DNA of 59,406 nucleotides from Escherichia phage ECO103 4-12-1: sequence record OR844651. One strand, written 5' to 3'. Shown piece by piece: positions 46,434 through 46,673 of the stretch. The notes beneath the pieces are model-generated. The model saw nothing but the letters and a program-made list of their open reading frames with translations, was not told the DNA's origin and ran no database searches. The position numbers were made by a program, and so were the translations under genes. The number at the start of each line of letters is the position of its first letter. The stretch's first letter is position 1.

Positions 46434-46673
46434 CTTACTTGAAAAACCTATCCGGTTGAAAAATTTTGAACGACGCGGCCAGTCCTTACTTCAAAAACCT
46501 ACCCGGCTGACGGTTTTGTCCACCAGCATCGGGGCAATTTCACCCGGCCGACGGGCTTACTTGAAAAACCTGTCCGGTTGTCGTTGCGACGTTCCGCGCT
46601 TACTTGAAAAAGTTATCCGGTTGAAGCCGCGAGGCCCGGCCGCCCGCCTTACTTCAAAAAGTCATCCGGCTGA
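46434..46673 (+). repeat. array of five ~26-bp direct repeats CTTACTT(G/C)AAAAA(C/G)(C/T)(T/C)(A/G)(T/C)CCGG(T/C)TGA
   Basis: copies start at 46434, 46485, 46556, 46599, 46648; spacing 43-71 bp; between divergent early promoters. Confidence 0.8.

Follow-up and report, generated by a model that had tools for sequence, protein, structure and literature searches.

The genome of Escherichia phage ECO103 4-12-1 (sequence record OR844651; 59,406 bp, called as a whole the window below) contains five direct repeats of a 25-bp motif in the gap between its two divergent early gene blocks, and these repeats most likely belong to a family-wide protein-binding array in the control region of Chi-like phages. 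With a probability of about 0.8, the array is a set of binding sites for one sequence-specific protein, which would build a defined nucleoprotein complex there. This reading is based on the asymmetric motif with its invariant core and on three to six direct copies at constrained distances, and also on a conserved integration host factor (IHF) site, a single locus per genome and the lack of transcription or translation signals. As for its function, an iteron-type replication origin or replication-control locus (about 0.35) is favoured over a control array for the early promoters. We infer protein binding from these features, while origin function and the identity of the binder are proposed with much less support. 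In the literature searched, which included papers on the Chi genome, Enc34, PIN1/PIN2 and Salmonella phage diversity, there is no mention of the motif or the repeats, or of a Chi-like origin or promoters.

The repeats in the window

The window is the complete genome of a Chi-like siphophage (Casjensviridae, Chivirus), with an identity of 97-98% to Salmonella phages PMBT21 and iEPS5 across 5.5 kb. Its early region consists of two divergent blocks of small genes, mostly without function, which occupy 41343-46033 on the - strand and 46794 to about 58400 on the + strand. A gap of 760 bp (46034-46793) separates the - strand gene ending at 46033 from the + strand gene starting at 46794, which bears out the non-coding region between divergent early operons described by the first-pass annotation of this DNA. 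Only spurious open reading frames (ORFs) are annotated in the gap in GenBank records.

The motif CTTACTTSAAAAASYYRYCCGGYTG occurs five times in this gap, always on the + strand, with starts at 46434, 46485, 46556, 46599 and 46648 and start-to-start distances of 51/71/43/49 bp. When both strands of the 59,406 bp were searched with the degenerate 25-mer (at most 3 mismatches), it turned out that the five array sites were the only matches, so that all five direct repeats of the earlier description, with their spacing of 43-71 bp, were recovered. There were 0 matches in 100 dinucleotide-preserving shuffles, and the array is therefore not due to chance. The copies are as follows.

46434-46458, + strand: repeat copy 1, CTTACTTGAAAAACCTATCCGGTTG; a homologous first copy is found in every array-bearing lineage
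46485-46509, + strand: repeat copy 2, CTTACTTCAAAAACCTACCCGGCTG; its distance of 51 bp from copy 1 is retained in 8 of 12 array types examined
46556-46580, + strand: repeat copy 3; 97% identity to copy 1 across 33 nt, including an 8-nt 5' extension CCGACGGG
46599-46623, + strand: repeat copy 4; dispensable in nature, as an HNH endonuclease gene takes the place of copies 4 and 5 in FSL SP-030-type phages
46648-46672, + strand: repeat copy 5; its end is 50 bp upstream of the P_R -35, P_R being the rightward early promoter

The near identity of copies 1 and 3 had been noticed before and holds, whereas the trailing TGA that was given as the end of the motif is present in four of the five copies only, copy 3 ending in TTGT. 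The 13-bp cores of the repeats contain 23% G+C versus 65% G+C in the spacers, which are 18-46 bp long, irregular, and conserved between phages. For a protein-binding direct-repeat array, the long bipartite unit, the irregular yet fixed spacing and the G+C-rich spacers are unusual.

Conservation of the array among Chi-like phages

The first-pass annotation had proposed a conservation check in related phages, and this check speaks for the array: it is kept in at least eight lineages, the Redjac-type lineage among them, at the same place upstream of a homologue of gp62 (DUF7609), always in the same orientation and with three to six copies. The copy numbers and start-to-start distances (bp) are listed below.

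Chi, Utah and other Chivirus: 5 copies, 51/71/43/49
Hafnia phage Enc34: 5 copies, 51/43/32/39
Serratia phage Smarc5: 5 copies, 51/71/43/49
Salmonella phage SAP012: 4 copies, 51/73/52
Providencia phage PibeRecoleta: 5 copies, 51/71/45/72
Klebsiella phage PIN1: 6 copies, 45/53/53/61/31
Providencia phage Kokobel1: 3 copies, 63/83
Metagenomic contig L011: 5 copies, 51/71/43/49
Metagenomic contigs L037 and L180: 5 copies, 61/57/47/57

Judged from these comparisons the array is ancient; gp62 itself is just 38-78% identical among the array-bearing phages. CTTACTT is invariant across the array-bearing lineages, and in the logo of 53 copies from 11 lineages each of its positions carries about 2 bits. 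Strong signal is also present at A9-A13, C14, C15, T16, G18, C19, G21, G22 and G25, with little beyond. In the alignment of 11 Chivirus gaps, the nucleotide diversity is 0.032 for the 8-bp box 1, 0.14-0.16 for the middle and box 2, 0.167 for the spacers and 0.078 for the left part of the gap. Gap characters occur in just 3 of 239 array columns, and the 51/71/43/49 arrangement is kept in 10 of the 11 Chivirus genomes. The spacing of Smarc5 and L011 is identical to that of the window despite a different spacer sequence, indicating that the spacing is under selection.

The two halves of the motif behave differently. Four copies in SEP13 and S.Ent 1-35-3 carry another 3' half (GCCTGCCC, GCCGACGG, GCCAGCCC, GCCGACAG), so that the indispensable part is CTTACTTSAAAAA plus C19. 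The middle, AAAAACCTA, is swapped for a GATC-containing variant in several independent lineages (among them PIN1, SAP012, and copy 1 of L010 and L200). This variant creates a Dam site at a fixed position (xxGATCxxx), and the phages encode a Dam-family methyltransferase of their own (52601-53287).

Natural variants of the whole array also exist. In FSL SP-030-type phages, the HNH endonuclease gene leaves three copies, which are about 0.7 kb from P_R, while the distance from the leftward early promoter P_L to copy 1 is 308 bp versus 307 bp in the window. This HNH variant is found in FSL SP-030 (L010:1786-2310, corresponding to 46590-46700 of the window), SP-039, STP-3, Ariobarzanes and BCPSty_002. 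Copy 3 of FSL SP-030, together with the new downstream sequence, reads TTGAAA-17-TATTTT in front of the HNH gene. For Proteus phage Saba, no CTTACTT array was detected anywhere in 60 kb and the gap is just 246 bp, though the gp62 homologue and all replication genes are retained.

Beyond these phages, no array match was found in 72,556 plasmids and 5,426 E. coli genomes. Among 185,579 species (one genome each) there were 59 pattern matches, of which 58 are unrelated tandem repeats and 1 is a Chi-like phage contig (58.9 kb) in a metagenome-assembled genome. This contig (L180), a Chi-like phage genome, is binned as Cereibacter sphaeroides. A pattern scan of viral contigs was swamped by unrelated AT-rich repeats, and the full motif was present in Chi-like contigs only.

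Other elements of the gap

Besides the repeats, the gap contains a set of further elements, several of which are conserved outside Chivirus.

46098-46127, - strand: leftward early promoter P_L, TTGACG-18-TACATT, from a consensus scan; points away from the array
46165-46255: C-rich tract of 91 nt, non-coding; 53% C on the + strand (48 C versus 24 G, 15 A and 4 T)
46326-46338, - strand: exact IHF consensus, AATCAACGGTTTA; one of four in the genome
46389-46406, + strand: G+C-rich hairpin with a T-rich run after it, terminator-like, CAGGCC-GCGCCG-GGCCTG; conserved in Chivirus
46409-46424, + strand: conserved motif X, TTTCTCTATAAAAATT; precedes copy 1 by 9 bp
46456-46471, + strand: A/T-rich element between copies 1 and 2, TTGAAAAATTTTGAAC; conserved across genera
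46723-46751, + strand: rightward early promoter P_R, TTGACA-17-TATTGT; points away from the array; diversity 0.006, the most conserved stretch of the gap

Since P_L and P_R are placed at the edges of the gap and point outward, the stretch of about 590 bp between them appears to be untranscribed. The IHF consensus sits about 100 bp left of the array, between the array and P_L. Within Chivirus, 10 of 11 sequences vary at its N positions only, and the exact consensus is also found left of the array in Enc34, Smarc5, SAP012 and PIN1, with a background of 0.14 per kb. Variants of motif X in other genera precede copy 1 and a later copy, forming a higher-order unit of 122-146 bp. The C-rich tract left of the array, which had been pointed out before, is indeed there. 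It is not evident in Enc34, the one other genus with gap sequence inspected; it lies outside the conserved module and, on comparison with the Enc34 gap, is Chivirus-specific.

Two ORFs fall into the gap, and neither behaves like a gene. The variable sites of ORF 46136-46321 (- strand; gp63 in Chi, Utah_063 in Utah) are distributed 16:14:13 by codon position, and 3 of 11 Chivirus genomes have the frame shifted or truncated; this ORF is unlikely to be a gene. For ORF 46456-46716 (+ strand), which spans the array, the distribution is 40:36:34 and stop codons interrupt the frame in 2 of 11 relatives. A coding function of the array or the gap was thus rejected, since both ORFs lack codon periodicity and are broken in relatives. 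A structured RNA was rejected as well (no Rfam match; folding z-scores -0.31 and +0.07 on the two strands), and so was a small + strand RNA from about 46135 to the hairpin at 46389-46406, because most relatives have CATAAA as its putative -10 and the substitutions in the hairpin are one-sided and not compensatory. A CRISPR-like mini-array does not fit either, as the spacers are irregular and shared between phages.

P_L and P_R belong to a family of sigma-70-like early promoters with the spacer TTGACrYACGYCGCGTrTA, for which there are 10 matches versus 0.2 expected. The family includes the following sites.

43332-43350, - strand: promoter family site
46109-46127, - strand: promoter family site, P_L
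46723-46741, + strand: promoter family site, P_R
50035-50053, + strand: promoter family site
55508-55526, + strand: promoter family site
54082-54100, + strand: promoter family site, degenerate

The conserved promoter spacer suggests a common operator for a regulator.

A proposed replication origin or replication-control locus

In the mechanism that we propose, one DNA-binding protein would read the asymmetric core CTTACTTSAAAAA together with the looser 3' half GCnGGyTG, and the sites, with the bend made by host IHF about 100 bp to the left, would form a nucleoprotein complex of fixed geometry in the only promoter-flanked and apparently untranscribed gap of the early region. An initiator would load on the array, while divergent early transcription from P_L and P_R would give negative supercoiling; entry of the prim-pol/SF3 helicase, the family-A DNA polymerase, the Enc34-type SSB (single-stranded DNA-binding protein) and the SNF2 helicase could then follow. 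The prim-pol/SF3-helicase gene (861 aa) is at 37276-39861 on the + strand. The block at 27.4-36.8 kb on the - strand holds the SNF2 helicase, the family-A polymerase, the Enc34-type SSB and a DUF2800 nuclease, as well as a small-terminase-like protein and a lambda gpA-type large terminase. Candidate initiators are the predicted C-terminal winged helix of the 861-aa prim-pol/helicase and a 93-aa helix-turn-helix (HTH)-like protein co-transcribed with it.

Several properties are counted in support of an origin: at least three direct repeats in one orientation, within the length of about 17-25 bp expected of an iteron origin, are conserved among relatives; there is a single locus per genome; copy number is variable and the copies are homogenised within each genome, as in iterons; and the array is independent of the distance to P_R. 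The IHF site is counted too, and so are the divergent promoters on either side, which would supply negative supercoiling. 

A number of observations weigh against an origin. The spacing is irregular (31-83 bp), whereas iteron origins are typically regular tandem arrays, and the helical phasing is not regular, with 11 of 17 distinct spacings at most 0.2 turn from an integer number of 10.5-bp turns. No AT-rich unwinding element was found beside the array, where the sole A/T patch is the 16-bp TTGAAAAATTTTGAAC and G+C makes up 65% of the spacers; duplex stability is lowest in the genome at 40188-40517, and 46125-46164 is likewise among the least stable DNA. There is no DnaA box in or beside the array, no initiator gene adjoins it, and a Rep family was not detected. 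The replication genes are the same in Saba, which lacks the array, and two other repeat arrays, possible alternative origins, flank the cohesive-end site (cos). The searches for a binder, described in the next section, add to these points. Taken together, the iteron-like protein-binding array of the first-pass annotation fits the conservation, the spacing, the IHF site and the absence of coding, RNA and promoter signals; among the three functions offered there (origin, regulator array, partition-like site), an origin is plausible, a regulator array nearly as much so, and a partition-like site unlikely.

Candidate binding proteins

The last ~100 residues of the prim-pol/helicase (gene part 39253-39858, + strand) are confidently predicted to form a helix-helix-beta-hairpin with a long helix. 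The matches of this C-terminus to winged helices are consistent and weak (MCM8 WH, PadR, STIV F93; Foldseek E 0.3 or worse), which tells against it as the initiator. The primase C-terminus and the downstream HTH gene are the most divergent segments of the replication region between Chivirus isolates (71% identity, or no match). It turned out that the type of the repeat 3' half does not co-vary with the type of either, a further point against the origin: in ECO111 5-P the array is of the S.Ent type and the primase C-terminus and HTH gene are of the window type, and in FSL SP-030 it is the other way round.

The sole constant neighbour of the array is gp62 (DUF7609; 46794-47165, + strand, 123 aa), an acidic protein with an invariant C-terminal tail of the DDDEV type. 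It was rejected as initiator owing to its acidity and to an AlphaFold2 model (pLDDT 72) without a significant fold match in PDB, and this too speaks against an origin. Several GenBank records label gp62 as RecT or replication protein, without support. For gp61, a sub-threshold HTH_PafC match is the best that was obtained. Two HTH-type proteins are encoded at 39902-40189 (- strand, HTH_37) and 36998-37279 (the 93-aa protein), and nothing found ties them to the repeat motif. Phylogenetic profiling, which is limited as small early genes evolve too fast for tblastn, gave gene 43385-43657 as the sole gene with the right presence pattern (Saba without the array versus Kokobel1 and PIN1 with it), but it encodes a membrane protein. 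Among host factors and related sites, Fis, CRP, DnaA, OmpR, CpxR, marbox, Ter and the rolling-circle nick CTTGAT were compared with the repeats by consensus sequence, and none gave a convincing fit.

Alternative explanations

The main rival is control of early transcription, which we rate somewhat below an origin and well above the other alternatives. A phage or host regulator would polymerise on the three to six asymmetric sites and the IHF bend would loop the complex to P_L (307 bp away) and P_R, so that both promoters might be shut off or boosted at the early-to-middle switch. The position of the array between the only divergent early promoter pair suits such a regulator, as does the IHF site on the P_L side of the array; the last copy of PIN1 and of PibeRecoleta is placed about 5-15 bp from the putative P_R -35. 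Over about 250 bp, irregular distances are often seen in arrays of activator or repressor sites and seldom in origins, and the absence of the module from Saba despite the kept replication genes is easier to understand for an accessory regulatory module than for an origin. However, no copy in the window overlaps a promoter, and no fixed distance to P_R, as of an operator or upstream activating sequence, is kept: the distance of the last copy varies from about 30 to 110 bp, and the 0.65-kb HNH gene can be inserted in between, which adds about 0.7 kb. Within Chivirus, the array keeps a constant distance of 307-308 bp from P_L. None of the five other promoters in the P_L/P_R family has repeat sites, the family already shares a conserved spacer motif resembling an operator of its own, and no regulator gene constantly adjoins the array. 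In comparison with an origin, a control array does better on the absence from Saba and the irregular spacing, and worse on the HNH insertion and the missing promoter overlap.

The other alternatives are improbable to different degrees. One of them, a DNA-entry checkpoint, would have the array with its IHF site mark the inward limit of the segment that enters first (5.6 kb, 40803 to about 46400; 9.5% of the genome) and carries the outward-reading leftward 'pre-early' operon; a membrane-associated, host or virion protein on the CTTACTT repeats would hold the DNA until the early proteins are made. The published Chi cohesive end GGTGCGCAGAGC is present in the window as the reverse complement (cos, 40791-40802), and both the terminase (lambda gpA type) and the gene order resemble those of lambda. 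In lambda, the last-packaged right end enters the cell first, and by analogy with this polarity the end at 40803 would enter first here. P_L and the array would then be 5.3 and 5.6 kb inside, beside an outward-reading block of poorly conserved small genes, and the T5 stop signal matches in description (untranslated repeats near an end, poorly conserved ORFs, an occasional HNH split). Nevertheless, the argument is one of analogy throughout and there is no known report of two-step entry in Chi; inverted repeats with DnaA boxes make up the region in T5, but none occur here, and Saba does without the array. Even less probable are tandem promoters, in which each repeat, with its -35-like TTGAAA in box 1, would drive the rightward operon in the way of T7 A1-A3, perhaps with a phage-modified RNA polymerase. 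All copies are oriented with the downstream operon, TTGAAA agrees with the -35 consensus in 5 of 6 positions, and a promoter-like combination is seen not only in FSL SP-030 copy 3 but also in window copy 5 (TTCAAA-18-TAAACT). Yet there is no conserved -10, since the logo has mostly T where the essential A2 is required; the consensus promoter scan gave none in the array; 36% of the copies have TTC and not TTG; and promoters leave the invariant CTTAC and the conserved spacing of a motif found nowhere else in the genome unexplained. Comparison by eye with consensus sequences led to the rejection of sigma-70, sigma-32, sigma-E, sigma-28 and MotA-type promoters, as just the -35-like TTGAAA fits, with no -10. 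The reading as a centromere-like site for the partition of a plasmid prophage or carrier state is close to refuted. Direct-repeat arrays are typical of ParR- and omega-type centromeres, and two papers call Chi-like phages temperate from turbid plaques and an 'integrase' annotation, which would favour it; but that 'integrase' is a 120-aa protein without an integrase domain, no ParA, ParB or ParR family turned up in a scan of about 55 proteins, and neither the plasmids nor the E. coli genomes contain the array, the sole true match in the species genomes being the free 58.9-kb phage contig.

Other repeats and features of the genome

Two repeat regions near cos compete with the array as candidate sites. 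Four direct copies of the promoter-spacer motif ACGCACGCCGCGTATA without the -35 hexamer are located at 41037-41238 on the + strand (spacing 73/48/59; 240-440 bp from cos), and may act as decoy operators, as an accessory site of cos or as another origin. On the other side, at least nine TGTAAC/GTTACA motifs are found at 40300-40580 in an AT-rich stretch that is the least stable DNA of the genome. The palindrome ATAACAAATTTGTTAT occurs in 40190-40600, between the HTH_37 gene (39902-40189, - strand) and cos. By analogy with lambda, the 40190-40600 stretch is probably cosB and/or an operator of the HTH protein, and it competes for the origin. Comparable arrays are present in Saba near the primase gene and cos, with an AT-rich 12-mer array after the primase gene (L196:9383-9428).

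The divergent replication-gene operons are separated by 240 bp, and this gap contains a 25-nt inverted repeat (36856-36880 / 36894-36918; 13-nt loop, 80% complementarity) that probably serves the region as operator. Across the genome, Chi recombination hotspots (GCTGGTGG) are enriched about nine-fold, with 26 on both strands versus about 3 expected from shuffles. Two of them (46376 and 46520, - strand) are inside the early gap; they are not kept in relatives and are part of the genome-wide excess, and a functional role there was rejected on this ground. Besides, several records named as Staphylococcus, Listeria or Enterococcus phage (e.g. GU169904 SA1 and the OR84/OR85 series) hold Chi-like phage sequence, evidently by contamination or mislabelling.

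Significance and comparison with known systems

Chi-like phages (Casjensviridae) are widely isolated and have been proposed for the control of Salmonella, Klebsiella, Providencia and Serratia, while their early biology is blank: nearly all of about 34 early genes are without function, and origin, regulators and promoters are unmapped. The array, the IHF site and the promoter family give a concrete, conserved map of cis-acting elements in the early control region. The 25-mer can serve immediately as bait for the protein that would control replication or the early switch, and CTTACTTSAAAAA-N5-C as a lineage marker. A cloned array may act as a phage-specific decoy which titrates the binder, as cloned origins of lactococcal phages do.

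Iteron theta origins, such as R6K gamma ori, pSC101, P1 oriR/incA and lambda ori, are the nearest systems for the favoured origin or replication-control locus. Like them, the array has asymmetric direct repeats in one orientation with variable copy number and homogenised copies, an adjoining IHF site, a position just upstream of a promoter and one locus per genome. Unlike them, the 25-bp unit joins a 13-bp 5' core that is invariant to a loose 3' half, the repeats are irregularly placed at 31-83 bp instead of about 22 bp head-to-tail, the G+C content of the spacers is 65%, and an AT-rich unwinding region, DnaA boxes and an adjoining Rep-like gene are lacking. In phage P4, the alpha primase-helicase binds ori and crr through a C-terminal winged helix. 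The phage of the window resembles P4 in a primase-helicase fusion with a predicted C-terminal winged helix and in short irregular repeats kilobases away from the primase gene; it differs in having an AEP prim-pol joined to an SF3 (D5-like) helicase, 25-bp repeats that are direct without exception, and no detected co-variation of array type with primase C-terminus type.

The Mu operator region with IHF and the p4/p6 system of phi29 are multi-site controls between divergent early promoters, with sites overlapping the promoters. Several sites for one protein and an IHF bend between divergent early promoters would be common to these systems and the array, whereas the sites here are 50-290 bp upstream of P_R and at least 307 bp from P_L, and an insertion of 0.65 kb is tolerated. 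The injection stop of T5, located at 7.9% of its genome, consists of untranslated repeats that are conserved; it adjoins poorly conserved small ORFs and is split by HNH in some relatives. It differs from the array, which has direct repeats only, in its long inverted repeats and paired DnaA boxes. Conserved untranslated repeats about 8-10% from one genome end, poorly conserved small early ORFs and the occasional HNH split are shared with this site (iss), and if an entry checkpoint were true, two-step DNA delivery would extend beyond T5 to a flagellotropic lambda-type cos phage.

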